A program made the translations under genes and the position numbers. A stretch of DNA of 64,000 nucleotides from contig CAXXJS010000010.1 in the NCBI GenBank assembly GCA_963662665.2, positions 1 to 64,000 of the forward strand, given 5' to 3'. How positions within the stretch are numbered: the first letter of the stretch is position 1; every line of letters begins with the position of its first letter. Under the pieces are notes generated by a model. The model was not told the origin of the DNA, ran no database searches, and saw only the letters and a list, made by a program, of their open reading frames with translations. This stretch comes from Candidatus Latescibacterota bacterium (lineage in GTDB: Bacteria > Latescibacterota > UBA2968 > GCA-2709665). Of the stretch, positions 19,083-31,673 are shown one piece after another.

Positions 19083-19142
19083 TTAGAGTCGCCAACGGTC
19101 CGGGATGGCCCGTTGCGCAAAGGGAAAGCAGGAAAGGCGGAT

Positions 19143-20411
19143 ATGGACCTGCACCGCGTGGTCGAGGATCTGGGAATCGAGCAAGGCAGGGACGCCCTTG
19201 AATCAGGGTGGGAGGACTCCCGGCGCGCGATGCCGGACGGGGAGATCCGATTTCTTACATCTGACTTCGTGAGCGAGGCCTGCCGGGGCATTTGTCTTCC
19301 GGAAGATATCGTCCAGGCTGCCGTACACGCGGCTGCCCGGGTATCCAGGAACTCCGCGATGCGCGCGTTGGCCTGGCACTGCCACTGGTGCCTCTATCGG
19401 GTCATGGGTTATTCCAGCCGATACGCGGACAATTGGCCCTGTATGAGTGGCCCGCTCGGGGAATCGGCAGGTCTTTTCTACCTGCTGGTGCTGCTTTCAT
19501 GGTTTCCTCATATGCGATCGGTACACCGGGCGCATGGAATTCCGGAAAAGGTCGTGCACGATAGCATGGATCAGATTTACCTGAGGGGCGAAACCTGCAG
19601 CGAGATCTTCGGTGGATGGGGGCTGGACGGACACGCGGCCCGCTGGCTGGCCAATTTCCTCCGTGGTGAAATCTACGCCCTGGGCCGGCTCGAACATCAA
19701 TTCAACGTGATGAACGACCCGTTTCGCGTCTATCGGCACAGGGCGTCGTCAGCCGTCATCGCGCTGAGCGAAGACGGCGTTTCCTATCGCCGCGACGGTC
19801 AGCGGCACAAAGGCGGAGACACGCGCCCGGCGTGGACCTCCCGGCTCCAGGTCGCAGGCGGCAGGATTGCCGGCCACCCCATCCTCCCCACCGGCCGCGC
19901 CGTTGAAATGACGGTAACGCTTGCCGAAGCAGACTGGGTCCCTGTCCTCGGCCCTGGGGACCCCGTGCTTTATTTTCATATTCCGGGCGGAATTCCGCTG
20001 GACCATGCCGATTGCGGGGATTCCTTCAGGGCCGCAATGGACTTCTTCCCCCGCCATTTTCCCGAACGTCCGTACAAGGCGTTCTTCTGTGGTTCCTGGT
20101 TGCTGGATACGCAACTGGAGGACTGGCTGCCATCCGGTTCCAATCTGGTGCGTTTTCTGCGTGAATTCTACCTCGTGCCCGGCGGCATCTCGGAGCGGTC
20201 GATACTGCAGACGGTTTTCGGGAATGCGGCGGATGACCTGAGCAGGGCGACCGGCGTTACATCGCTTCAGCGTGCAATACAGGAACATGTGTCCGCGGGC
20301 AGGCCGATAGATCCCCGCGCCGGCAAATGCTTTCTGTTCCCCGAAGATCTGGATTGGGGAGGGCAGGTATACCGAACATCGAAGTTCTCCTGGCCCCTGG
20401 CGGGCTATTGA
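19143..20411 (+). CDS. GNAT-like N-acyltransferase (NAT_N/GNAT_C type, related to glycopeptide acyltransferases Orf11*/Dbv8)
   Basis: LGRLEH, HIPGGIPL, AMDFF, CGSWLLD..L and SNLVRF motifs. Confidence 0.75.
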   Translation: MDLHRVVEDLGIEQGRDALESGWEDSRRAMPDGEIRFLTSDFVSEACRGICLPEDIVQAAVHAAARVSRNSAMRALAWHCHWCLYRVMGYSSRYADNWPCMSGPLGESAGLFYLLVLLSWFPHMRSVHRAHGIPEKVVHDSMDQIYLRGETCSEIFGGWGLDGHAARWLANFLRGEIYALGRLEHQFNVMNDPFRVYRHRASSAVIALSEDGVSYRRDGQRHKGGDTRPAWTSRLQVAGGRIAGHPILPTGRAVEMTVTLAEADWVPVLGPGDPVLYFHIPGGIPLDHADCGDSFRAAMDFFPRHFPERPYKAFFCGSWLLDTQLEDWLPSGSNLVRFLREFYLVPGGISERSILQTVFGNAADDLSRATGVTSLQRAIQEHVSAGRPIDPRAGKCFLFPEDLDWGGQVYRTSKFSWPLAGY

Positions 20412-20482
20412 TGTGAAACACGCGCCGGTACCAAGCCGCGGCGACAATGGATACCCGCACAAGGAAATACAAGGAGGTCGAC

Positions 20483-21613
20483 ATGGAGCGATTCGGACAG
20501 CTCGAGCTGGACTACCTGGCGAAGGTGATCGCCAGCGGGACCCTGAACAGCAAGACCGGAAAATTCACGTCGCAACTGGAGGAGCGGTTCGCAGCGTGGG
20601 TAGGGGCCGAATACGCGGTGGCGATGAACAGTGCGATGAGCGTCCTGCACACTGCCGTGGCGGCGGCGGGCGTGGGGCCGGGCGTGGAGGTGATCTGCGA
20701 CCCGGTGGTCCATTTCGGGGGCGCAGCGGTAATGTATCACAACGGGGTGCCCGTATTCTGCGATATCGACGAGGATAGCTGGAATATGGATCCCGATTCG
20801 CTGCAGTCGTGCATCACGGAACACACGGGCGCCGTCATCTGTACGCCGATGTGGGGAAACCCGCCGGATTACGACGGGATTCTCCGGGTGGCTGAGAGCA
20901 ACGGGCTACCGGTAATCGAAGACGTGGCGCACGGTGTCGGGGGTTCTTACAGGGGCAGGCCCCTGGGAACGCTCGGGTCGATCGGATCCTACAGTTTCCA
21001 GGAGGCCAAACATCTCACCAGCGGGGACGGCGGCATGGCTGTGACGGATCGGGCCGACCTGGTCGAAAAAATGCTGGAAATGAGGATCATAAAAACGACC
21101 CTTGGCTGGAATTACCGTATGACGGAACTACAGGCCGGGGTGATGCTGGCGCAGATGGACAGGGCGGACGGTATAATTTCCGCGCACCACAAGGCGGGGG
21201 CGCTCTACTGCGAAGCCGCAAAAGAGACCCCGTGGCTGGTGCCTCAACGCGTGGCGGACGGATGCGTCCACGCCTATCACGGGGTCGCGTTTCGATTTGA
21301 AGGTGACCGCGATGGAATCCCGGTGGAGCGTTTTCAGACGACTATGGTCGAACACGGATGTCCGGTCTCGATCGGCTACAAGAGACGCTCTGCCGCGGAG
21401 GACCCGATTTTCACGGAGGTCCTGGCGTACGGCAAAGGGTGCCCCATCCGGTGCCCTCATTACAAGGGCCTTGCGCGCTACGGAAAGGGAGTGACGCCGG
21501 TGGCCGATCGCGCGGTGCCCCGCATGGTCGTGATGCCGATGGACGTGTATACGCCCGGAAAGACCGAGGAATTCTCGGAAAAGATCCACGCGGGCCTGAA
21601 AGCGCTTGGGTGA
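20483..21613 (+). CDS. DegT/DnrJ/EryC1/StrS PLP-dependent aminotransferase
   Basis: VIEDVAHG, YSFQEAKHLTSGDGG (PLP lysine), GWNYRMTELQA; AAGGAGG RBS. Confidence 0.92.
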   Translation: MERFGQLELDYLAKVIASGTLNSKTGKFTSQLEERFAAWVGAEYAVAMNSAMSVLHTAVAAAGVGPGVEVICDPVVHFGGAAVMYHNGVPVFCDIDEDSWNMDPDSLQSCITEHTGAVICTPMWGNPPDYDGILRVAESNGLPVIEDVAHGVGGSYRGRPLGTLGSIGSYSFQEAKHLTSGDGGMAVTDRADLVEKMLEMRIIKTTLGWNYRMTELQAGVMLAQMDRADGIISAHHKAGALYCEAAKETPWLVPQRVADGCVHAYHGVAFRFEGDRDGIPVERFQTTMVEHGCPVSIGYKRRSAAEDPIFTEVLAYGKGCPIRCPHYKGLARYGKGVTPVADRAVPRMVVMPMDVYTPGKTEEFSEKIHAGLKALG

Positions 21614-21774
21614 GCCAGGCGTCACGAACCTGGAACGGCCCTCGCTCGGAACGCACGCAGAGATGCGACACACGACGGAGGTCGTGCTGCCGATTGAGCG
21701 TTCCGCCCGGATAGGGCGCCCGGTTGAGTTGAATCGTTCGGAAATGTAGATGCGGAGGGAGAGAACGGCCGCGG

Positions 21775-22635
21775 TCAATGCCCGTGCTGCGCTTCCGTTC
21801 CATGAACGGCGCTGGATTCAACGAAGTAGAGGGCGTAGGCCAAACCGATTCCCACAAGAAGGGATGCGATGAGTTTGCCGCGGTCGTGGCTGTGGAAATG
21901 GATCTCAGGCAGCAGATCGCTCAGAGCGATGCACAGAAACGCGCCCGCGGCAAACGCAAGTACATAGCCTATGACCGAGCCGTCGTCCAGGCCGAGGAGT
22001 CCCACTCCCCAGAAACTGGCAAGAGCGACCAGCGGGCAAAGCAAGGCGAACGCGATATTGGCCGCGTTTCGCACGCGTGCGCCGTGGCCCGCGAACTTCA
22101 TCATGCCAATGATGGAATACGCGTCGAGCGGTTTGTGAAGAAGAATGGCGAGGAATACCCCGAGTGCGGGCAGCGCCCCGCCGTCTTCATGCGGCGAACT
22201 CACCCGCATGCTGGTGCCCAGGGCGACGCCTTCGGTTACGGTATGTACGCCCAGGCCCATGGCAACCCCTACCAGACTGCCCGAGTGTCCGCCGGCTTCG
22301 CCGTGGTCGTGATGATCGTACAGTTCGCCGGCTTCATTGCTGAAGTCGTGCTGATGGAATTGAAAGACGCGCAGCAGGAAGATCATCAGGATCATGCCGA
22401 ACACCACCCACGCGACGGCTTTTTCGACGTTTCCGGGTCCGGTAATCCGCTCGAGACTGTGAGGGAAGAGATGGTACATGGCAATGCCGAGGATGAATCC
22501 CGCCACGAGGCTCATCAGTATCTGAATCCTCGTGTGGGTCATGGACCCCAGAACGGCCAATCTCCCGCCAATAAATGAAACGGCAAAGATGCCGAGTGAG
22601 TACCCGATAATAATCAGTAGCCCGTCGTAATCCAC
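21775..22635 (-). CDS. ZIP family metal transporter
   Basis: VHTVTEGVALG, ILLHKPLD, AAGAFLCIALSDLLPE; His-rich loops HQHD..DHHDH and HFHSHD. Confidence 0.9.
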   Translation of the reverse strand: MDYDGLLIIIGYSLGIFAVSFIGGRLAVLGSMTHTRIQILMSLVAGFILGIAMYHLFPHSLERITGPGNVEKAVAWVVFGMILMIFLLRVFQFHQHDFSNEAGELYDHHDHGEAGGHSGSLVGVAMGLGVHTVTEGVALGTSMRVSSPHEDGGALPALGVFLAILLHKPLDAYSIIGMMKFAGHGARVRNAANIAFALLCPLVALASFWGVGLLGLDDGSVIGYVLAFAAGAFLCIALSDLLPEIHFHSHDRGKLIASLLVGIGLAYALYFVESSAVHGTEAQHGH

Positions 22636-22866
22636 AATAACCTCACCTCAATTTGGCTTGGGAAGCCGCACTGTCTTCTCCAACGCCTGCGCCCGAGCGG
22701 GGGCCGTCGTGACGACTCAGTTTCGCCAGATGCCAGAACGGAAATTCCCTGGAGAAACCTCGGGGTCGCACAATACGTTTCTTCATTGGAATTATTCGGG
22801 GGCAACCCCACATCCCGCACCGGGCTGCCCCCTTTCGATCATTTTCGCTTTCAGACCCGAAGCGCA

Positions 22867-23355
22867 TCAGAAGAAAAGCATAAGAAGCAGGATGCTGCTC
22901 AGCCCGCCCAGCATAAACCCGCCTATGCTGACCGCGCCCGAAACCAATGAATAATCGGCAATACGAAACGTCTGTTCGCCCAGGGTGAAGAGCACCTGGG
23001 TGCGATTGATTTCCCGATCCGCGAAATTTTTCAATGCCTCCTCGGCGCTGTGGGCCTCCTTTACCGAGACCATCGCGACAAGAATCATCGTCAGCGCAGA
23101 TGCCAGGGTCCCGGTTGCAAATACGAGCAGCGTCGTCAGGGCGATCCAGTGGTAGGCCGCGTCTTCGACTCCTGAAGGCGAACTCATGAATCCGATGACC
23201 AATGCCGCACCGCCCGCGTTGCCAAGCAGCAAAAGCCGGGCCGACTCGGTAATCAGCCTGAACATCGTGCCGCGACGCATATGGACAACCTTGTAGAGTT
23301 CGCGCAGCCACTCTTCGCCGATTTCTTCAACTGAAAATTCGTCCACCTTTTTCAA
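22867..23355 (-). CDS. Hypothetical membrane protein (about 3 TM segments)
   Basis: Starts 3 nt after the binding protein stop, GGAGG RBS, hydrophobic segments. Confidence 0.65.
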   Translation of the reverse strand: MKKVDEFSVEEIGEEWLRELYKVVHMRRGTMFRLITESARLLLLGNAGGAALVIGFMSSPSGVEDAAYHWIALTTLLVFATGTLASALTMILVAMVSVKEAHSAEEALKNFADREINRTQVLFTLGEQTFRIADYSLVSGAVSIGGFMLGGLSSILLLMLFF

Positions 23356-23358
23356 GGG

Positions 23359-24513
23359 TCAATCTCCTCCGAGATCGATCAGACGGACGTAGCGCGAACC
23401 TGAGTTGGTTCCAGGCTCGAATGCGAGCGTCCAATCGTCGATCGCTATCGGTCCGGACGACAACGCCCGCTGCAGAAAATACTCCCGCGTCAACGTCCCG
23501 CCCATGCGCTCCAGCACCTCGATGACGAAGCGGCCCAGAATGTATCCCTCGAGGGACACCTCGTTGACGCCGTAATTCCCGTCCGCCTCACCGCTTGCAG
23601 TGTCCACGGCCCCCATGGCCCGATGAAAGTTCCTGACCACCAGCATGCCCGTGTCGCGGGCATCGGGCATCACTTCGGAGACCAGTATTCTGTCGTTTGG
23701 CGCGTCAATCCGCTTCTTCAACTCGTAGGACAGAACAAACGAAAGATTGGCCATAATGTATCTGTGGCCAAGAGAGTGCGCCAGGTTGATAATTTCAGAG
23801 TTGGAGGCATACGCACCCACGATCATGATGGCCTCCAGGTCGGCCTTGGCCAGGGCGAACAGGCTGGCCTGGACGGCATGGGTGTTTCGGGAGAAAGCGG
23901 TTTTCGCCAGAATGGGAATTCCCTTGCCGTCGAGAATCGACTTGTAGTTCTTCAGGACGGAACGCCCGAAAGCATCGTCCTGATAGATAATGCCGAACCG
24001 CTTCTTGCCCCGTTTCCTCTGAATGTGATTTACCAGAACGCGGGTCTCGTCCATATAACCCGCTCTGAGGTTGACGACGTTTGGAAACCTTAGAGCATTG
24101 CGCAGGAACGCGGCGCCGGTAAACGGTCCCACAAAGGGAATCTTTGCCGTCTTCAGCACCGGCGCGATGCGTTTCGCCGTGGGCGTACCCACGCCGCCGA
24201 TAACGGCGAATACGTCGTCCTCGGAAGCGAATCGTTCCGCGTTGGCGGCCGCCAGATCTGGTTCGTAGGCGTCGTCGAGGGAAATCAGCTTCAGTATTCT
24301 GCCGTTAACGCCGCCGCCGCGGTTCGCTTCGAGCAGGGCCGCGCGAATACCGGCCCGATAGTTGAATCCCAACTGTCTGTTCGGCCCGGAAAAACATGCG
24401 CTCTGACCGAAGACAATCGTTGTATCGCTGACACCTTGCGCCGCTTGGGACGTCGCGACAGGCAGCAGGGCGAGCCAGAATACCCATAGCCCATTGACGA
24501 TGTGTGCCGCCAT
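23359..24513 (-). CDS. Periplasmic binding protein type 1 (Leu/Ile/Val-binding-like)
   Basis: Signal peptide; FGQSACFSGP, GGVNGR..LDDAYEP, GGVGTPT, IYQDDAFG. Confidence 0.88.
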   Translation of the reverse strand: MAAHIVNGLWVFWLALLPVATSQAAQGVSDTTIVFGQSACFSGPNRQLGFNYRAGIRAALLEANRGGGVNGRILKLISLDDAYEPDLAAANAERFASEDDVFAVIGGVGTPTAKRIAPVLKTAKIPFVGPFTGAAFLRNALRFPNVVNLRAGYMDETRVLVNHIQRKRGKKRFGIIYQDDAFGRSVLKNYKSILDGKGIPILAKTAFSRNTHAVQASLFALAKADLEAIMIVGAYASNSEIINLAHSLGHRYIMANLSFVLSYELKKRIDAPNDRILVSEVMPDARDTGMLVVRNFHRAMGAVDTASGEADGNYGVNEVSLEGYILGRFVIEVLERMGGTLTREYFLQRALSSGPIAIDDWTLAFEPGTNSGSRYVRLIDLGGD

Positions 24514-24543
24514 TCGCTACCCTCTTCCCGAGGCGTGTCACAT

Positions 24544-25944
24544 CTACTTCGACGTGGCGCCACCCTCCCCCTTCTTTCCCGATTTGCCGGCAGCCACGTT
24601 CTTCTTCCCCTGCTTGGGGCCGGCCTTCGTTTTCTTCCCGGATTTGACGCCGGGCGTTGCCTGCTTCATCGACCTGGCATCCTCCTCAGGGAGCACCTCC
24701 ACCATCGGCTTTTCCTGCTCCTGCCGGCTGAACCGTTTGCCACGCACAACGTGGCTATGAGAGAATATCGAAGGTGTGTCGAAAATGAGCGACCGGGGAT
24801 TGGCCACGTCCAGGTGATCGCGTTCCGCGCGCGCTCTGTGAAACTGCCCGTCGAGCGTGAGTTTGTCCTCATCTACATTTTCTATCCTGTGTATATTGGG
24901 CATTTGCGTTGACGATAACGCCATCCTGCCGGTCGCGGCGCCGGTTAACGAAGGTTGCTCCCCCAGGGCCAGATCGGCCGGCGTGAACCCCTCGCCAGCG
25001 CCGTCAATCATGTTAATGTCGATGGCCGACTGATTGGCCGGGTTGACCGCCGCCAGGCTCGCATCCGAAAAGATCCTTCGCATCCGATCCCAGTAGCGCG
25101 TGGTACGGACGTGTGAGGGCTGCCGCCTGTACTCCGCCAGCAGAGCCGTAAACGCCCCGGCGCTGCTTTTCGCCTGCACGACCCGTTCTGCTGCCCTGGC
25201 CTTTGCTTCCAGTACCAGCGCCTCGGCCTGTCCCCGGCTGCGCGCAATCAGCTGCTCCTTCTGGCGATTGGCGTCGCTCACCGCCTTCGCGCGCTCCGCA
25301 AATGCGTCGCTGACGTCCCTGAACGCTGCAATGGTTTCCTCGATGGGGCGCACGTCGACGATGTCGAGAGAAACGAGTTCAATCCCAACGTCGCGGTTTT
25401 CGAGCCACGCGGTTATCCTGTCGAACAGCCTGCTTTGAATGATGTTTCGATTCGAGGTCAGGATCAGATCAATGAAGTTCTCGCCCAGGACATCGATCAG
25501 TTCTTCCCGGGTGTAAACGGTCAACATCGCAATGGGATCGCTGGAGACGAACAGGAAATTCCCGAGATTATCGATCCGGTACTGAAGCGCAACGTTTACC
25601 TCAAGCAGATTCACATCGCCGGACAATATGGTGAAGTTGACCTTGCTGCCTTCCCTGCTGGATACCTGGTATCGGGTGACCCGCTTGACCTTGCGGATGT
25701 GCACCTGGTCGATGATTGGAATGCAATAGTGCATTCCGGGGCGGACATTGGCATTCACGACCCTGCCGAACCGGAGCACGACGCCGTGTTCTTCCTTTTT
25801 TACAATGTACAACCCGCTGGCCAGAATGCAGACGACAACCGCGGCAGCGGTCCAGACGATGATTCGCCACCGGTGTTTCGAGTAATAATCGAAGACGGCG
25901 TAGATGATCCGCGTACTTTGCGGCAATTGTGACTGTTCGCTCAT
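24544..25944 (-). CDS. HflK-like SPFH/band 7 protein with long C-terminal extension
   Basis: One N-terminal TM; GVVLRFGR..PGMHY, LSGDVNLL..QYRI, AFRDVSDA, coiled coil ARSRGQA. Confidence 0.85.
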   Translation of the reverse strand: MSEQSQLPQSTRIIYAVFDYYSKHRWRIIVWTAAAVVVCILASGLYIVKKEEHGVVLRFGRVVNANVRPGMHYCIPIIDQVHIRKVKRVTRYQVSSREGSKVNFTILSGDVNLLEVNVALQYRIDNLGNFLFVSSDPIAMLTVYTREELIDVLGENFIDLILTSNRNIIQSRLFDRITAWLENRDVGIELVSLDIVDVRPIEETIAAFRDVSDAFAERAKAVSDANRQKEQLIARSRGQAEALVLEAKARAAERVVQAKSSAGAFTALLAEYRRQPSHVRTTRYWDRMRRIFSDASLAAVNPANQSAIDINMIDGAGEGFTPADLALGEQPSLTGAATGRMALSSTQMPNIHRIENVDEDKLTLDGQFHRARAERDHLDVANPRSLIFDTPSIFSHSHVVRGKRFSRQEQEKPMVEVLPEEDARSMKQATPGVKSGKKTKAGPKQGKKNVAAGKSGKKGEGGATSK

Positions 25945-25962
25945 TGCGCTTGAACTCTGGTT

Positions 25963-26853
25963 TTATCGGGGCGAGGTCCTGCTGTTGAGGTACTTGAACA
26001 ACTCGTTGTCGGCCGGCAGCATCAACGTCGTATTCCGGTCGACAATCAGGTCGTAGCTGTCCAGCGCGCGGATGAAGCTGTAGAATCCCGGGTCCTGCCG
26101 GTAGGCCTTGCCCAGCAAGGCCATCGCCTCGGCCTCGGCCTTACCGAGAATGGCGGTTGCCTCCGCGTGGGCGTCGGCCATCAGCTTTTCGTGTTCGTTA
26201 ATGGCCAGGGCCTCGATACGCAGCGCCATTTCCTCACCCTCGCTGCGATACCGGGCGGCAATGCGCGCCCGTTCCGCGATCATGCGCTGAATGACGCTCG
26301 GCCGGTTCTCCGTGGGCAGTGTGTATTCAACGATTCCCGCCTCGATGACCTCGATGCCGTAGCTTTCTCTGGCAGTTGGCGCGATTCTGGCGTGTATTTC
26401 CCGCGAAGCCTCGTTCAGGTCTTCGTGTTCCAGCCCCAGCCCGATAAAGGAGTCCATAGCCTTGTTGCTGATGATAATCCCGCTGCTGGACAGATAGAGG
26501 TCCTGCAAGCGCTCAACGGCGTTCTTCCCGGTGCGGATCGCCTCAACGAACAGAATGGGGTCCACGGTCCGCCAGAGCAGGTACCCGTCGACGCGAACGC
26601 TCTTCTGATCGTCCGTGATCAGTTCGTGAGGCACGTCGGTCAGCGTATGAATGCGTCGGTCCACCTTGTAAATCCTGGAGATCGGGCGGGGCCACTTCAC
26701 GTGAAGCCCGGGTTGTCGCACCGGCGGCGAAATCCTGCCGAAATGCGTCAGTACGCCCTGCTGGGTTTCGTGGATAATGTAGATGCTGTCGTAGACGATT
26801 GCGCCGACGATCACGGCGATGGCCGCGGTCATTGTGGCTTTCTTGAGCGTCAT
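25963..26853 (-). CDS. HflC-like SPFH protein
   Basis: THFG..PGLHVKWP, ITDDQKSV, RMIAERARIAARYRSEGEE, DPGFYSFIRALDSY. Confidence 0.9.
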   Translation of the reverse strand: MTLKKATMTAAIAVIVGAIVYDSIYIIHETQQGVLTHFGRISPPVRQPGLHVKWPRPISRIYKVDRRIHTLTDVPHELITDDQKSVRVDGYLLWRTVDPILFVEAIRTGKNAVERLQDLYLSSSGIIISNKAMDSFIGLGLEHEDLNEASREIHARIAPTARESYGIEVIEAGIVEYTLPTENRPSVIQRMIAERARIAARYRSEGEEMALRIEALAINEHEKLMADAHAEATAILGKAEAEAMALLGKAYRQDPGFYSFIRALDSYDLIVDRNTTLMLPADNELFKYLNSRTSPR

Positions 26854-27010
26854 TGCCTTTCCTCGTCAGTAAGGGCGTCCGGGTCGCGTGTGTGAGATCG
26901 ACCCGTGGACCCGGTGCGACTCTGAATTATCGAGCGCCAACCGAATGGCGTGGAATCCGGCGCTCCGTCCCGGACATGCATTGCATGCCTTCAACTGCCG
27001 CGTTTACCGC

Positions 27011-29311
27011 TTAGTGGCCCTTCTTTCGGTGGCCGTCCGGCGGGTTGGCGCCGGATGCGTTTCTCTTCCACAGCGCGACCTTTTCGAGGCTCTTCTTGTT
27101 GGGAACGATGATCTTTGGATTGCCCGCCAACGCCGATTCCAGTTTTTCCCGCCACAGCATGTTCCTCAGTACGCCCGGCGCGGTTCTGACGGCCCTGGAG
27201 ACCGTGGATATCGCATCGGACTCAGCGGCCGCCGTCTTGACCCTCCGATATGCCTCGCCGTCGGCCTGCTGTACCTCCCACGCCGCGTTTCCGTGAGCCT
27301 GGGGCACCAGCGATACCAGGAAGCGCTGCGCGTTGACGATAATCCGCTCCCGGTCTTCCTGCGCGCTGGATACGTCCCGGAAAGCGCTCATGGTTTCCGC
27401 CACGGGGCTGACGTCCAGCAGGCTGACCTTGACGATTTCAACGGTTTTCAAAACCGAATTTGCGAAGTGCACGTCCACGTCGAAGGACCGGGTGAGATGT
27501 TCTTCGAGCGTTGCGCGATGCACGTTCAGCAATCTTTCGAGGTCCCGCGCGGATATGAAGGAACGCACGTGGGCCTTGACGACGTCGGCGATGACTTTCT
27601 GCGGGTCCTCCGTCCGATAATGATAGACGTAGGGATCCGTAACCCTGTATTGCACGTTGACGGTAAGAGATATCAGGTTGAGGTCGCCGGACACGTACTC
27701 TTCGGGCGTCTCACAGAGGATGGACTTCACTTCCCGTACCGGCCACTTGTCGACTTTGACGAAGGGCCAGGGGAGAAGATAGCTCAACCCCGGCTGGATG
27801 TCACGCCAGTAGACCTCCCCCAGAAGCCGGCCATAACCCACCGCATGGGGGGGTACGGTTGTGAATCCGCTGGCCAGGAACAGGACGAGGAGCAATCCCC
27901 AGAGCATCTTTCCCATTGGCGTGCCGGGAGAAATGATCCCTTTGAAATTACGCCCGCGCGTGAGGCGCTGCCAGGCCTGGGCCCACGTTTTCGACAGGGG
28001 TCGTATGTTGAGAAGCAGGTCCTCCCATCCGCTGCGGAGGGCGCCCGCCCGGAAACGCCAGACGATAAGCGCAATGAGAATAAGCGCTGATCCCCACTGC
28101 ATGAACTGTATCGCAGGCGATTCGGAGGGACCGAGGTACAACGGAATCGTCAGGCCGGCGGCCAGGAGCAGTGCGTCTACAACAATGCCGATGACGACCG
28201 TGACGGCGACGACGGCCGAGACGTAAATGGTGGCGAAACGGGCGCCAAACTGGCTGACGATGATCGCGATCGTTCCGGTATTGGTGGCCGGCCCGGTCAT
28301 CAGAAAAATCAGCGCCGCTCCGGGGCTGAATCCCTTCGCAACGAGGGCCGCGGCGATCGGCGTGCTTGCCGATGCGCAGATATAGAGAGGAACGCCGACC
28401 AGCACCATCACGGGATAGGAGACCCAACGGGCATATTCGTTTGTCATCAGGTCGCCCGGTATCACCAGGAAGAGCACCCCGCCCAGGGCCACGCCAACCA
28501 GCAGCGCGAAGAGGATGTCGTCCGCAATCTCCACGAAACCGTAGTGAAAGATGTGCTTCACCAGCTTTTTAAAATCGAGTGCCTGACCGCCCTCGGACGA
28601 ATCCCCCGGAGAAGCCTTTCCGGCCTCCTCCGCTTCCTGCGCTTCCCGGTAGAATGCGGGCTTCACCCAGGAAAGGGACTTCCAGCGGCCGGCCACCGTG
28701 GCGACGCTCTTCAGCCACTGCACGAAAAGGCCCTTCAATCGCGAAAAGCTGACGTAGCAGTCGTCAGTTTCGGGAATGAGGGGCTCGTGCGAACCGTGAT
28801 CGTGGTCATGATCGTGCCCGTGGTCATGGTCGTGATCATGTTCGTGGTCGTGATCGTCGTGGCTGTGGTCCGACACGGTTTCTTCAGGGTCGTTACGTAT
28901 CAGGCCGATACAAAAGATGCCGGCGACGACGGCCGTGATAAAGCTGATCACCGGACGCACCACCGCGGCGGCAAATCCGAAGAAGGCATTTGTGACCAGA
29001 ATCGAGTCCGCCCCGGTCTCGGGTGCGGTTATCAGGAACGACATGCAGGACGATCGGGATGCGCCCTTCCTGCGCATCTCGGCAACCACGGGCACAACGG
29101 AACAACTGCACAGCGGAACGGGTACGCCCACGGCCGAACTCACGGCTACGGATTTCAGGCTGTCGTCCTTGAGCCACCTGAGGATGGCCTCACGGGAAAT
29201 AAACACGTGGATCAGACCCGAGAGAAACAACCCCAGCAACAGCATGGGCGCCAGGAGTAAACCTGACATCCAGAGAAAGTCGAAAAAACTGACCAGCGTC
29301 TGCTGTACCAC
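27011..29311 (-). CDS. SO_0444/DUF318-type metal permease fused to a C-terminal HflK-like SPFH domain
   Basis: PLCSCSVVP, SFLITAPETGADS, His/Asp tract, PLYICASASTP, FLMTGPATN; then PGLSYLLPWP, SGDLNLI..QYRV, AFRDVSSAQED; GGAGG before GTG. Confidence 0.88.
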   Translation of the reverse strand: MVQQTLVSFFDFLWMSGLLLAPMLLLGLFLSGLIHVFISREAILRWLKDDSLKSVAVSSAVGVPVPLCSCSVVPVVAEMRRKGASRSSCMSFLITAPETGADSILVTNAFFGFAAAVVRPVISFITAVVAGIFCIGLIRNDPEETVSDHSHDDHDHEHDHDHDHGHDHDHDHGSHEPLIPETDDCYVSFSRLKGLFVQWLKSVATVAGRWKSLSWVKPAFYREAQEAEEAGKASPGDSSEGGQALDFKKLVKHIFHYGFVEIADDILFALLVGVALGGVLFLVIPGDLMTNEYARWVSYPVMVLVGVPLYICASASTPIAAALVAKGFSPGAALIFLMTGPATNTGTIAIIVSQFGARFATIYVSAVVAVTVVIGIVVDALLLAAGLTIPLYLGPSESPAIQFMQWGSALILIALIVWRFRAGALRSGWEDLLLNIRPLSKTWAQAWQRLTRGRNFKGIISPGTPMGKMLWGLLLVLFLASGFTTVPPHAVGYGRLLGEVYWRDIQPGLSYLLPWPFVKVDKWPVREVKSILCETPEEYVSGDLNLISLTVNVQYRVTDPYVYHYRTEDPQKVIADVVKAHVRSFISARDLERLLNVHRATLEEHLTRSFDVDVHFANSVLKTVEIVKVSLLDVSPVAETMSAFRDVSSAQEDRERIIVNAQRFLVSLVPQAHGNAAWEVQQADGEAYRRVKTAAAESDAISTVSRAVRTAPGVLRNMLWREKLESALAGNPKIIVPNKKSLEKVALWKRNASGANPPDGHRKKGH
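28787..28870 (-). repeat. His-Asp low-complexity tract within the permease
   Basis: Encodes DHSHDDHDHEHDHDHDHGHDHDHDHGSH. Confidence 0.9.
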
Positions 29312-29380
29312 TCAATGGCCTCCAGTGCATCGGATGATGCGAAGGACCGCCTGAAAGGCGGTTCAGAAACCCGAGCGGAA

Positions 29381-29409
29381 ATGATAATGACTATCAGATT
29401 TCAAGTCAA
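29381..29409 (-). promoter_or_regulatory. Sigma70 promoter overlapped by a Fur/Zur-type 7-1-7 box
   Basis: Minus strand TTGACT-N17-TATCAT; TGATAATGACTATCA at 29382-29396 is one mismatch from TGATAATnATTATCA. Confidence 0.8.
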
Positions 29410-29595
29410 GGACAATATAATATAGCATATTCCACCGCCCCTGCAAGGGGGCGATACACAGTTGAAAATGACGTGGTTTCGGCCGCCCGGACAGAACAGT
29501 TCAGCGGCAGGCGGCTCGCGGATCCGGGTCGCGCTCCGGGCTGCCGTTCCCGGCGACGTCGGGTGCGACGGTCTGGCGCAGGAACGCCGTTTGTT

Positions 29596-30384
29596 TCAGG
29601 CTCGGGAAGGCCCGTGATCGCAGCCGGCCTCAGACGTACTCCTGGCATAACGTGGGCGGTTGTGTATCGGGCGGAACCCGATCCCTTCGTAGACCTTTTC
29701 GGCTGCACTGCCGGCTGCCACTTCAAGCCCTGTCCATCGATTGCCCATTGCCCTTGAGTCCGCAACCGCGCGCGCGGTCAGTGCGGACGCCACGCCTTTG
29801 CGGCGGTATTGCGGCAAGGTGCCTACGAAGTCCACGCAACCCATATCGTATTTGGAGTAAAGCAAAGAGGTTCCCGCCGGCTTTCCATCCACCCATGCGA
29901 GGTAGAGCCGTACTTCGGGGATGTCGAGAACCGTCCGGCTCAGGGCGCCCACGTCGTCCGGAAAATCGAAAGCGCGACACATCGTGCCACACCAGACTTC
30001 GTAACGGCCGGGACCGGGTTCTTCTATCCGAATCGATCCCGGCGCGACGGATTGCGCGGTCCGGTCGCAGTTCATCGCCACGGCCTGTAAATCAAACGCG
30101 AATCCGCGTCTTTTCAGCCGTTCGGCCAGATCAGCGGGCCGGTCCAGCGGCGACAGGGTGAACGCACATTCGAAATCCTTTCCCCTGAAATATGCGAGGG
30201 CGTTGTCGATCATCTTGTCCACGTCCGAGTCGGACACGTTGATCTGTACGACGCGGTGCAGCAAGGACACTTTGACGCACTCGTGGCTAAATGCCAGGGC
30301 CCCGCCCAAGTCGTGGCTGTCGCACCAGCGGGCCCGAAAACCGACCCAGAGTTTTTCGAAAGCTTCCGTGAATTGACCGGACAT
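29596..30384 (-). CDS. GNAT family N-acetyltransferase
   Basis: VGTLPQYRRKGVA acetyl-CoA motif, VYEGIGF. Confidence 0.88.
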   Translation of the reverse strand: MSGQFTEAFEKLWVGFRARWCDSHDLGGALAFSHECVKVSLLHRVVQINVSDSDVDKMIDNALAYFRGKDFECAFTLSPLDRPADLAERLKRRGFAFDLQAVAMNCDRTAQSVAPGSIRIEEPGPGRYEVWCGTMCRAFDFPDDVGALSRTVLDIPEVRLYLAWVDGKPAGTSLLYSKYDMGCVDFVGTLPQYRRKGVASALTARAVADSRAMGNRWTGLEVAAGSAAEKVYEGIGFRPIHNRPRYARSTSEAGCDHGPSRA

Positions 30385-30704
30385 AGCGTGTAAAGACGCG
30401 TGGACTTCGGCGCTCTGCGTGTTCCAGCGGAAGCCCCACCGCTTCCATTCAAGCTAACGACCGCAGATCGGGTGAAGCCATCTTATATATCTTACATGGG
30501 TCTTTGAGGGTTATTGGACCGACATGCATTGCCAAAGTGTGCCATATTGGTATATTTCCTTCTCCGCCATAATGAGATCGACCATATGAGATTCGCAGGC
30601 AATCGGCGCATGTCCGAATCCGGCGAGGAGAAACGACGAACAGCCTTAAATAAAGGAGGATCAATGAGTCATTTATTTGCATGCGGCAATCGGGGTCTTC
30701 TACC

Positions 30705-31673
30705 ATGAGATTCATTGTAACGGGCAGCAACGGCTTCATCGGCCAGAATACATGCCGCAGGCTGATCGAACTCGGACACGATGTCATCGGCGTCGACGAC
30801 CTTTCGTCCGGATCGGCCGACAACGGCGTCGAGGGCGTCCAATACCACGCCCACAGCGTTGTGGATGCGGACTGGCTTGTGCGGCTCATGAAAAACACGG
30901 TTCCGGACGCGGTCCTTCACCTGGCGGCGAAGCCGCGTGTTCCGGATTCTGTGAAGAATCCGCTGCGCAGCGCGGAGGCAAACACAATGGGGACCCTGTC
31001 CGTACTCAACGCGATCTTGGAGACCGGGCTGAAGGGGAGAACACGCCTCGTCTTCGCCAGCAGCAGCGCGGTCTGCGGCAACGCTTCGGTCCTTCCCACG
31101 CCGGAGGCCTGCCCCTCGGACCCGCAGTCACCCTACGCTCTGGCGAAACTGCACGGCGAGCAGTGGTGCGCCATGTTTCATCGATTGTACGGACTGGATG
31201 TCGTAAGCCTGCGATATTTCAACGTATTCGGTCCCGGCGGGCTTTTCGGCGGCGCCTATTCAACCGTATTGTCGGCCTGGTCCTATCACCTGTTCGTGGA
31301 TCCGTCGTACCAGCCCTTCCTGGAAGGCGACGGCACCCAGACACGGGACTTCTGCTTCGTTGAGAACGTTGTCGACGCGAATATCGCCGCTGCGACCCGC
31401 GAACGCGGCTTTGAAGCGGACGTACTGAACGTGGGTCAGGGGGAAGCCCACTCCGTGCTTGAGGTCAAGGACGTTCTGGAAAAGGTTGCAGACAGAGAAC
31501 TCCCGCTTGAACGCCGTCCGGCTCGTGTAGGCGACGTGGCGCACACGCTGGCCGACATTTCACGGGCACGGGACGAACTCGGGTTCGAGCCGGCGACCGA
31601 CTTCTACAACCAGGTTGAACGCACCGCGATATGGCACCGCGATTGTTATCCCGAACGGCCGCGGGAGCGTTGA
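30705..31673 (+). CDS. NAD-dependent epimerase/dehydratase (extended SDR)
   Basis: VTGSNGFIG, HLAA, ASSSAV, PYALAK (YxxxK), LRYFNVFGP, GDGTQTRDF. Confidence 0.93.
   Translation: MRFIVTGSNGFIGQNTCRRLIELGHDVIGVDDLSSGSADNGVEGVQYHAHSVVDADWLVRLMKNTVPDAVLHLAAKPRVPDSVKNPLRSAEANTMGTLSVLNAILETGLKGRTRLVFASSSAVCGNASVLPTPEACPSDPQSPYALAKLHGEQWCAMFHRLYGLDVVSLRYFNVFGPGGLFGGAYSTVLSAWSYHLFVDPSYQPFLEGDGTQTRDFCFVENVVDANIAAATRERGFEADVLNVGQGEAHSVLEVKDVLEKVADRELPLERRPARVGDVAHTLADISRARDELGFEPATDFYNQVERTAIWHRDCYPERPRER

Follow-up and report, generated by a model that had tools for sequence, protein, structure and literature searches.

A conserved operon in Latescibacterota joins a metal-type permease covalently to an HflK-like SPFH protein

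Here we describe a six-gene operon in a 64,000-nucleotide (nt) stretch of DNA from a Candidatus Latescibacterota bacterium (contig CAXXJS010000010.1, hereafter the window), in which a metal-type permease is fused to an HflK-like SPFH protein. Open reading frame (ORF) calls and family scans place all six genes on the minus strand in one orientation: the permease::HflK fusion (27011-29311, 766 amino acids (aa)), an HflC-like gene (25963-26853, 296 aa), a second HflK-like gene (24544-25944, 466 aa), an orphan class I (LivJ-type) periplasmic binding protein with a hydrophobic N-terminus (23359-24513, 384 aa), a small membrane protein with a TTG start and three hydrophobic helices (22867-23355, 162 aa), and a ZIP transporter with a His-rich central loop (21775-22635, 286 aa). 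A first-pass annotation, made from the letters alone, had listed six co-oriented genes in this order, and the ORF calls and family matches bear it out. In operon order the intergenic gaps are 157, 18, 30, 3 and 231 nt; the three short gaps reported earlier among the middle genes are exact, and the first and last are wider.

The protein encoded by the first gene combines an SO_0444/ArsP_1 permease, a linker, an extra transmembrane (TM) helix and an HflK-like SPFH domain with a long coiled-coil helix. Residues 17-378 match PF03773 ArsP_1 (E 1e-45), and residues 20-418 score 319.8 bits against NF033936, 'SO_0444 family Cu/Zn efflux transporter', above its cut-off of 300. The metal permease of the first-pass annotation is upheld as to family; the founding member of that family is an efflux protein rather than an uptake permease. 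A Cys-Ser-Cys motif is the signature of the SO_0444 permease family, according to the accessible part of a bioRxiv preprint; here it is Cys68-Ser69-Cys70 (codons at 29102-29110, minus strand), and in an alignment of 105 fusions C68, C70 and C312 are invariant and S69 nearly so. The permease also carries a His/Asp-rich loop at residues 149-175 (28787-28867, minus strand), and His-rich loops at the same position are common among the first 60 fusions listed.

Downstream of the permease, residues 505-661 match PF01145 Band_7, and the HflK-like part (residues 473-758, 27038-27895 on the minus strand, with a TM helix at 465-480) aligns to residues 87-365 of E. coli HflK (E 5.5e-17), while the protein as a whole scores 137.8 against the TIGR01933 hflK model, under its cut-off of 159.4. 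Hydropathy gives about nine permease helices, a 47-residue loop (419-465) with nine Lys/Arg residues, one more helix and then the SPFH domain; because of those nine charges ahead of the last TM helix, the positive-inside rule would put the fused SPFH domain in the periplasm, like that of HflK. An AlphaFold2 (AF2) model built on the alignment of 105 fusions (mean predicted local distance difference test score (pLDDT) 84.8, predicted TM-score (pTM) 0.61, pLDDT below 50 at residues 150-171 of the His/Asp-rich loop) has the TM helix at 465-480, SPFH strands at 483-557 and a 70-residue helix at 638-708, an HflK-like order of secondary structure. A Foldseek search with this model returned E. coli HflK as the top match (7vhq_E, E 4.6e-13), with cages of prohibitin, QmcA, stomatin, erlin and flotillin ranking after it. 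Public annotation labels such proteins merely 'SO_0444 family efflux transporter' or 'HflK', and ten fusion representatives appear in cluster listings just as 'HflK protein' or 'YraQ/regulator of protease activity'.

The two genes that follow encode the remaining SPFH proteins of the trio. The HflC-like protein scores 156.2 against TIGR01932 hflC (cut-off 134.4) and aligns to E. coli HflC with an E value of 4.4e-34; the second HflK-like protein falls just under the TIGR01933 cut-off (158.4 against 159.4), and its residues 27-307 align to residues 79-350 of E. coli HflK (E 3.6e-32). By hydropathy each has a short N-terminus and then a single TM helix, and in all three SPFH proteins the alignment with E. 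coli HflK or HflC runs from the TM helix through the C-terminal helices. They are not the only such copies in the genome, a point on which the earlier proposal of a dedicated set depended: a canonical hflK-hflC pair lies on contig C51, with scores of 267.9 and 221.9 bits, far above those of the operon copies. In a tree of 36 SPFH sequences with two canonical pairs (E. coli and the source genome) and two distant SPFH proteins as outgroup, the ten second-position, HflC-like proteins form one clade (ultrafast bootstrap 95, SH-aLRT 80), nested in an HflC group that includes both canonical HflC proteins (100/99). The operon's SPFH proteins are therefore a paralogous set dedicated to it and not the housekeeping HflK/C.

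A two-chain complex prediction for the fused SPFH part and the HflC-like protein scored 0.57 against 0.00 for the best control, where scores of 0.60 or less are weak; the runs agree in at least 93% of contacts, with a partner pLDDT of at least 78. Of 157 solved complexes, 116 reach the mark for such predictions, as do 2 of 215 mismatched pairs, and because HflK/C complexes have already been solved, the score may show mere likeness to them. The absence of ftsH and hflX from the window, noted at first pass, holds: there is no FtsH-family match on the operon's contig and one over the cut-off on contig C21, and no hflX over its cut-off was found anywhere in the 92%-complete genome. The C-terminal third of the second HflK-like protein (24544-25030) is an extension of about 160 residues past the HflK core, with a Lys/Gly-rich tail, KSGKKTKAGPKQGKKNVAAGKSGKKGEGG. 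In HflK/C-type domes the C-termini lie at the apex, from which this tail would point into the periplasm.

The ZIP gene scores 65.6 bits against PF02535 (gathering cut-off 35.1) and 25.5 against the ZupT equivalog model NF003243, below its cut-off of 252. The fourth gene was first read as the periplasmic binding protein of a metal system, and a binding protein it is (PF13458 Peripla_BP_6, 147.7 bits against 31.7, E 8.7e-43), but of LivJ-type class I rather than a metal type. Its nearest solved relative is 4kv7 (E 7.3e-41), and on this and the class assignment we rejected a metal binder; against the LivJ subfamily model it scores 41, below the cut-off of 477. ORF calls and the family scan found no ABC permease or ATPase genes alongside it in the operon. 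The small protein matches no Pfam or NCBIfam family, and its protein-atlas neighbours are unnamed hypothetical clusters; its gene is real, with 89-97% identity in relatives. An overlapping 222-aa ORF at 22643-23311 had no family match.

On the minus strand upstream of the fusion gene, a promoter scan found a -35 hexamer TTGACT (29404-29409) and, 17 nt from it, a -10 hexamer TATCAT (29381-29386), with 10 of 12 positions matching; the -35 is kept in 10 relatives. Within the spacer and overlapping the -10 lies a 7-1-7 inverted repeat of the Fur/Zur type, TGATAGTCATTATCA (29382-29396, minus strand). The first-pass annotation had called this a near-consensus box, and it proves to be the best match in the genome, the sole site within one mismatch of TGATAATnATTATCA in 4,860,532 bases; because it is the single such match in a 4.86-Mb genome, it is more than chance. 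With half-sites TGATAAT/ATTATCA and a spacer of 1 or 2, there are 13 sites in the genome with at most two mismatches, and just two with one mismatch: the operon promoter and the promoter of the only Fur-family gene in this 92%-complete genome. The two-mismatch sites, which lie before an NADH-dehydrogenase-type subunit, a nuclease, a DUF499 gene and others, were taken as chance, with no zinc gene among those checked, and no box was seen by eye in the 157-nt and 231-nt intergenic gaps.

That Fur-family gene (122 aa) opens a likely zur operon on contig C61 (5686-9542 of locus L028), followed by a COG0523/CobW GTPase (473 aa), a WD40 beta-propeller protein (346 aa) and a second ZIP (269 aa). Fur-family, COG0523 and ZIP genes together are typical of zinc-starvation (Zur) regulons, and the COG0523 GTPases and ZIP/ZupT importers of such regulons are matched in this sole Fur-family operon; the WD40 protein is an unusual member. 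We know of no SPFH proteins in Zur regulons, and a literature search found none. The zur-like promoter reads TTGACA, ataac and TGATAATCGGTTATCA, with the -10 TATCAT inside the right arm, which is the layout of the operon promoter; the two share their half-sites and a TGATA..TATCA palindrome over the -10. Comparable 16-mers are present in a further six genomes from the genus, beside a Fur-family homologue in G045, G053 and G054 and about 0.8-1.2 kb from cobW homologues in G049 and G052; G056 has the 16-mer and the flanks seen in G053 and G054, but no Fur-family or cobW match in the stretch examined. On balance, we lean towards control of the operon by Zur in the window's genus, with the box as its predicted operator.

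Between promoter and start codon, the 5' untranslated region (UTR; 29312-29380, minus strand) may fold such that GTTTCT (29370-29365) pairs with the Shine-Dalgarno sequence GGAGG (29323-29319), with two small hairpins between them. The stretch is conserved across 12 relatives, for which RNAalifold gave -8.5 kcal/mol, with 1 of 15 pairs compensatory and no Rfam match, and we note the pairing as a possible translational control element. An Rfam scan of 21500-29800 at E of 1 or less returned a chance snoRNA match alone. About 20-45 nt upstream of the -35, most relatives (L013-L018) have an AT-rich inverted repeat, ACTATAT ... ATATAGT, shortened in the window, which might serve as an UP element or else as a second operator.

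A neighbourhood survey shows that the six genes are conserved elsewhere. The closest records (88-96% protein identity) are metagenome-assembled genomes (MAGs) labelled Candidatus Latescibacterota or Gemmatimonadota, and eight of these relatives keep the same flanks, seven with all six genes and the eighth, L019, ending inside the fourth gene. These flanks (19113-21613 and 29596-31673) hold genes of a sugar-modification type, namely a NAT_N/GNAT_C acyltransferase, a DegT aminotransferase, a GNAT protein and an NAD epimerase; their synteny in all close relatives marks the operon as a cassette at a fixed chromosomal site in the genus. A search of 168 genomes of the phylum, with counts read from the matches listed (164 further matches were not), gave at least 25 genomes with a full-length fusion and about 40 more in which a 70-80% identical permease ends near residue 440-500. 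Twenty of these loci were sampled: all ten fusion-bearing loci, from other genera, have the six genes in the same order, and in nine of the ten permease-only loci the ZIP gene directly adjoins the permease.

The same two states are found within the window's genus, where the fusion is intact in 10 of 15 genomes and the permease is cut in the other five, at query residues 455, 493, 534, 534 and 632; in three of these five the locus was examined, and ZIP comes straight after the cut permease. The binding-protein and small genes travel, and are deleted, together with the SPFH genes. At L166 and L167, which are permease-only, fragments of the small gene remain between permease and ZIP, so the six-gene form is the older one, at least where such remnants survive. 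The segment from the SPFH domain to the small gene has thus been deleted several times, and selection keeps the permease-ZIP pair. Locus L162 (G136:C1:4234300-4253300) has two permease-only copies on opposite strands, separated by about 4.6 kb: ZIP adjoins one of them, and three cobW/COG0523 homologues come after the other. Permease copies are paired in a similar way in G128, G133, G134, G135 and G140.

Beyond the phylum, a MAG labelled Dadabacteria (L021) has the fusion, HflC-like, HflK-like, binding-protein and small genes at 53-75% identity, and a Phycisphaeraceae MAG (L024) has ZIP directly upstream and then the fusion, HflC-like and HflK-like genes at 25-30% identity. An exhaustive profile search found 8852 relatives of the fusion; among the best 150 clusters (50% identity) 113 have both permease and SPFH parts, 104 of them with at least 670 residues. 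When longer proteins were sought with the SPFH part, all 120 clusters listed (90% identity) carried PF01145 and PF03773; the matches listed are labelled Gemmatimonadota, Latescibacteria, Opitutae, Defluviicoccus and Gammaproteobacteria, and some are named 'SO_0444 family Cu/Zn efflux transporter' by NCBI. Identity of the SPFH part reaches 55-68% in the Opitutae, Defluviicoccus and Gammaproteobacteria records, and these values for cassette and SPFH part across phyla suggest transfer between them.

Among metagenome loci with a fusion, the HflC-like gene is directly next in 13 of 14, L071 being the exception, with no partner genes; the third, HflK-like gene follows wherever the contig extends far enough. 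At L103 this third SPFH gene is read as two separate pieces (residues 1-180 and 198-339), and a transposase gene lies downstream of it; at L062 a ZnuA and an ABC-3 permease gene follow the trio. Seven metagenome loci (L061, L064, L065, L069, L071, L103 and L105) have an acetamidase/formamidase gene (PF03069) directly upstream of the fusion, and four (L061, L065, L105 and L129) have a further HflC-like gene farther upstream. Overall, what recurs is a permease of metal type, with its thiol motif and His-rich loop, beside ZIP; often it is fused to an HflK paralogue that brings an HflC-like and an HflK-like partner.

A second transporter family carries the same fusion. Locus L092 (4157-13088) encodes a fusion of a cation diffusion facilitator (CDF) to Band_7 and then two Band_7 genes, the same three-gene layout as in the operon, and a search with it found 560 proteins at E of 1e-20 or less, of which all 120 listed have PF01545 and PF01145. 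Among the records are ones from Kouleothrix, Chloroflexi, a Rhizobium strain and Oceanicaulis; their sources name the protein 'HflK'. The SPFH parts of these fusions group with the trio proteins; they differ from the operon in the transporter itself and, at L092, in the neighbours. CDFs export from the cytoplasm and ZIPs import. At L092 a HAMP histidine kinase and an HtrA-type protease lie upstream of the fusion and its two partners, and a two-domain parvulin lies downstream, which is an envelope-stress rather than a zinc context.

The operon trio may be compared with several known systems. E. coli HflK/C builds a periplasmic cage, to judge from PDB titles, and its structures with FtsH (PDB 7vhp, 7wi3, 9cz1/9cz2 and 9paw) have the single TM helix, SPFH domain, long helix and C-terminal part that we find in the trio, where the SPFH domain is predicted to be periplasmic as well; in both, K-type and C-type genes are adjacent. 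The operon differs in having two K-type paralogues and one C-type, in lacking an hflX context, in a metal permease of about nine TM helices that replaces the short cytoplasmic N-terminus of one K-type, and in K-type scores under the equivalog cut-off with a canonical pair separate in the same genome. SO_0444 of Shewanella oneidensis shares with the operon permease the NF033936 family and the Cys-Ser-Cys motif; in the available excerpts of its description, mutants did not grow in ZnSO4 or CuCl2 and the protein is proposed as an efflux protein in an operon with a ZntR-like regulator (PMC3219624). The operon described here has the HflK fusion, a ZIP partner and a Fur/Zur-type box, and its direction of transport is taken from the family. 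Human stomatin cages enclose aquaporin-1 and urea transporter-B (PDB 9zd2; PMC12407830, as far as the accessible text goes), an SPFH ring with a membrane transporter as client, much as we propose for the operon; judged on the same text, they differ in being eukaryotic and homo-oligomeric, with a non-covalent client and a ring that faces the cytoplasm.

To our knowledge no system of this sort has been characterized, as the first-pass annotation had also said, and the literature search likewise found none. Within that search, whose reach largely excluded subscription journals, there was no description of a transporter::HflK fusion and no paper on CDF::HflK fusions, and the words 'transporter', 'permease' and 'cation' are absent from the available part of a 2009 survey of prokaryotic SPFH proteins. 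In sum, this is a real and conserved feature that has gone unstudied: an HflK/HflC-type scaffold with a covalently attached metal transporter, for which we infer the following mechanism.

Based on these observations, we suggest that the locus is a zinc-class metal operon with a Zur-type operator, in which an accessory HflK/C-like ring has the transporter as its built-in client; we hold this reading with a confidence that is evenly poised. Its stable core would be the Cys-Ser-Cys SO_0444/ArsP_1 permease paired with ZIP. The fused permease, HflC-like and second HflK-like genes would be co-transcribed, and the three SPFH proteins, by homology to E. coli HflK/HflC, would alternate in a ring or dome that sits on the inner membrane and faces the periplasm. 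The transporter would be a client joined covalently to this scaffold, with several transporter copies held in one membrane patch. Such a ring may act as an accessory, tuning how active or stable the transporter is or how fast it turns over, and is not needed for transport itself; it might conceivably also shield the transporters, as proposed at first pass. ZIP would import zinc once Zur releases the promoter, and the fused permease would move a soft metal (of the Zn, Cu or Cd class) outward, under the dome. An exporter on a zinc-starvation promoter could serve either to eject soft metals let in by a promiscuous ZIP or to feed the periplasmic space under the dome. The likeness of the two boxes and the neighbours seen elsewhere (ZnuA/ABC-3 in L062, ZIP in L024, cobW homologues in L162) are consistent with a link to zinc.

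Several observations weigh against this reading. An exporter repressed by Zur is paradoxical, and SO_0444 sits in a ZntR-type operon in the portion of its description available (PMC3219624); Zur control and the transport role are here predicted from the genes. The box that was first called Fur/Zur resembles the likely zur operator, and to that extent the call stands, but the half-sites are spaced 7-1-7 in the operon and 7-2-7 in the zur-like promoter, 1 nt off. The left arm drifts in close relatives (GATGGTC, TATAGTC) and is replaced in L013 and L019, and a search ahead of the permease in 20 loci from other genera gave no convincing box, the best agreeing at 10 of 14 positions. With the genome 92% complete, the assembly could lack a second Fur-family gene. 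As regards the proposed separation of the SPFH proteins from the housekeeping ones, the HflC-like proteins do form their own clade, but the first- and third-position K-type groups are weakly supported (35/59 and 49/88) and are not separated from canonical HflK. Five of the 15 genomes of the genus, and many others, have lost the SPFH, binding-protein and small genes but kept permease and ZIP; such repeated loss means that the module is dispensable and not required. Finally, the model does not account for the binding protein or for the small protein.

These points bear differently on the alternatives. If the trio were still an FtsH-modulating cage, the fusion would place the permease by FtsH and its level would be set by regulated proteolysis. 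All three proteins do align to the HflK/HflC parts that build the FtsH cage, the genome has one FtsH-family gene over the cut-off, and the K-type paralogues lack supported separation from canonical HflK; we nevertheless consider such a turnover device unlikely, given a canonical and much higher-scoring hflK/hflC pair in the same genome, the separate clade of the trio HflC-like proteins, and the lack of any ftsH near the operon in the window or the loci examined. Somewhat less probable still is a plain Cu/Zn (or Cd) efflux or resistance operon, acting like SO_0444 under metal excess, in which the palindrome would not be a Zur operator or would act otherwise. Against it, the box overlaps the -10, where a repressor would sit, the operon always comes with ZIP, a family of importers, its neighbours elsewhere are the zinc-shortage genes COG0523, ZnuA and ABC-3, and no MerR/ZntR-type gene turned up among the window ORFs scanned, although no search was aimed at one. 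In favour of plain efflux are the NF033936 score together with the need for SO_0444 under Zn or Cu stress (PMC3219624, available excerpts), the CDF exporter in the parallel fusion, and the 20 loci of other genera in which the box was not found; moreover, Zn-bound Zur can induce an exporter gene in Streptomyces, according to the accessible part of that report (PMC5472717).

It might also be that there is no functional assembly at all, and that the SPFH, binding-protein and small genes are decaying passengers beside a fusion that is tolerated and not used. Exactly this segment has been deleted repeatedly, L071 has a fusion without partner genes, and the split third gene of L103 lies next to a transposase gene. 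On the other hand, fusion and partners are intact at 25-30% identity over phylum-level distances, full-length fusions make up 104 clusters at 50% identity among the best 150, and the CDF exporter family carries the same fusion; deep conservation, many clusters and a second exporter family are hard to explain without selection, and we regard decay as very improbable.

An extension of the built-in client reading, more conjectural and in our judgement improbable, is that the dome forms a protein-walled periplasmic chamber. Exporters at its rim would pump in zinc-class ions, which would be kept from diffusing and then passed to enclosed proteins or retaken by ZIP; the orphan binding protein is one candidate metal recipient inside it. 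If true, bacteria would have in this chamber their own equivalent of a zinc store or metallation compartment, one that arose independently with at least two families of exporter.

How SPFH cages affect the proteins inside them is an open question, whether for HflK/C, prohibitins, stomatins or flotillins, and such effects are hard to settle partly because the clients are usually unknown or loosely bound. Here the client is peptide-bonded to the cage at least twice, in the ArsP_1 and CDF exporters, and comes with two dedicated partner subunits, which makes for a system with a defined client, a defined stoichiometry and a measurable activity, metal transport. The natural deletion variants provide a cage-less control. 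For the bacteria that carry it, the operon may represent a possible new layer of zinc homeostasis.

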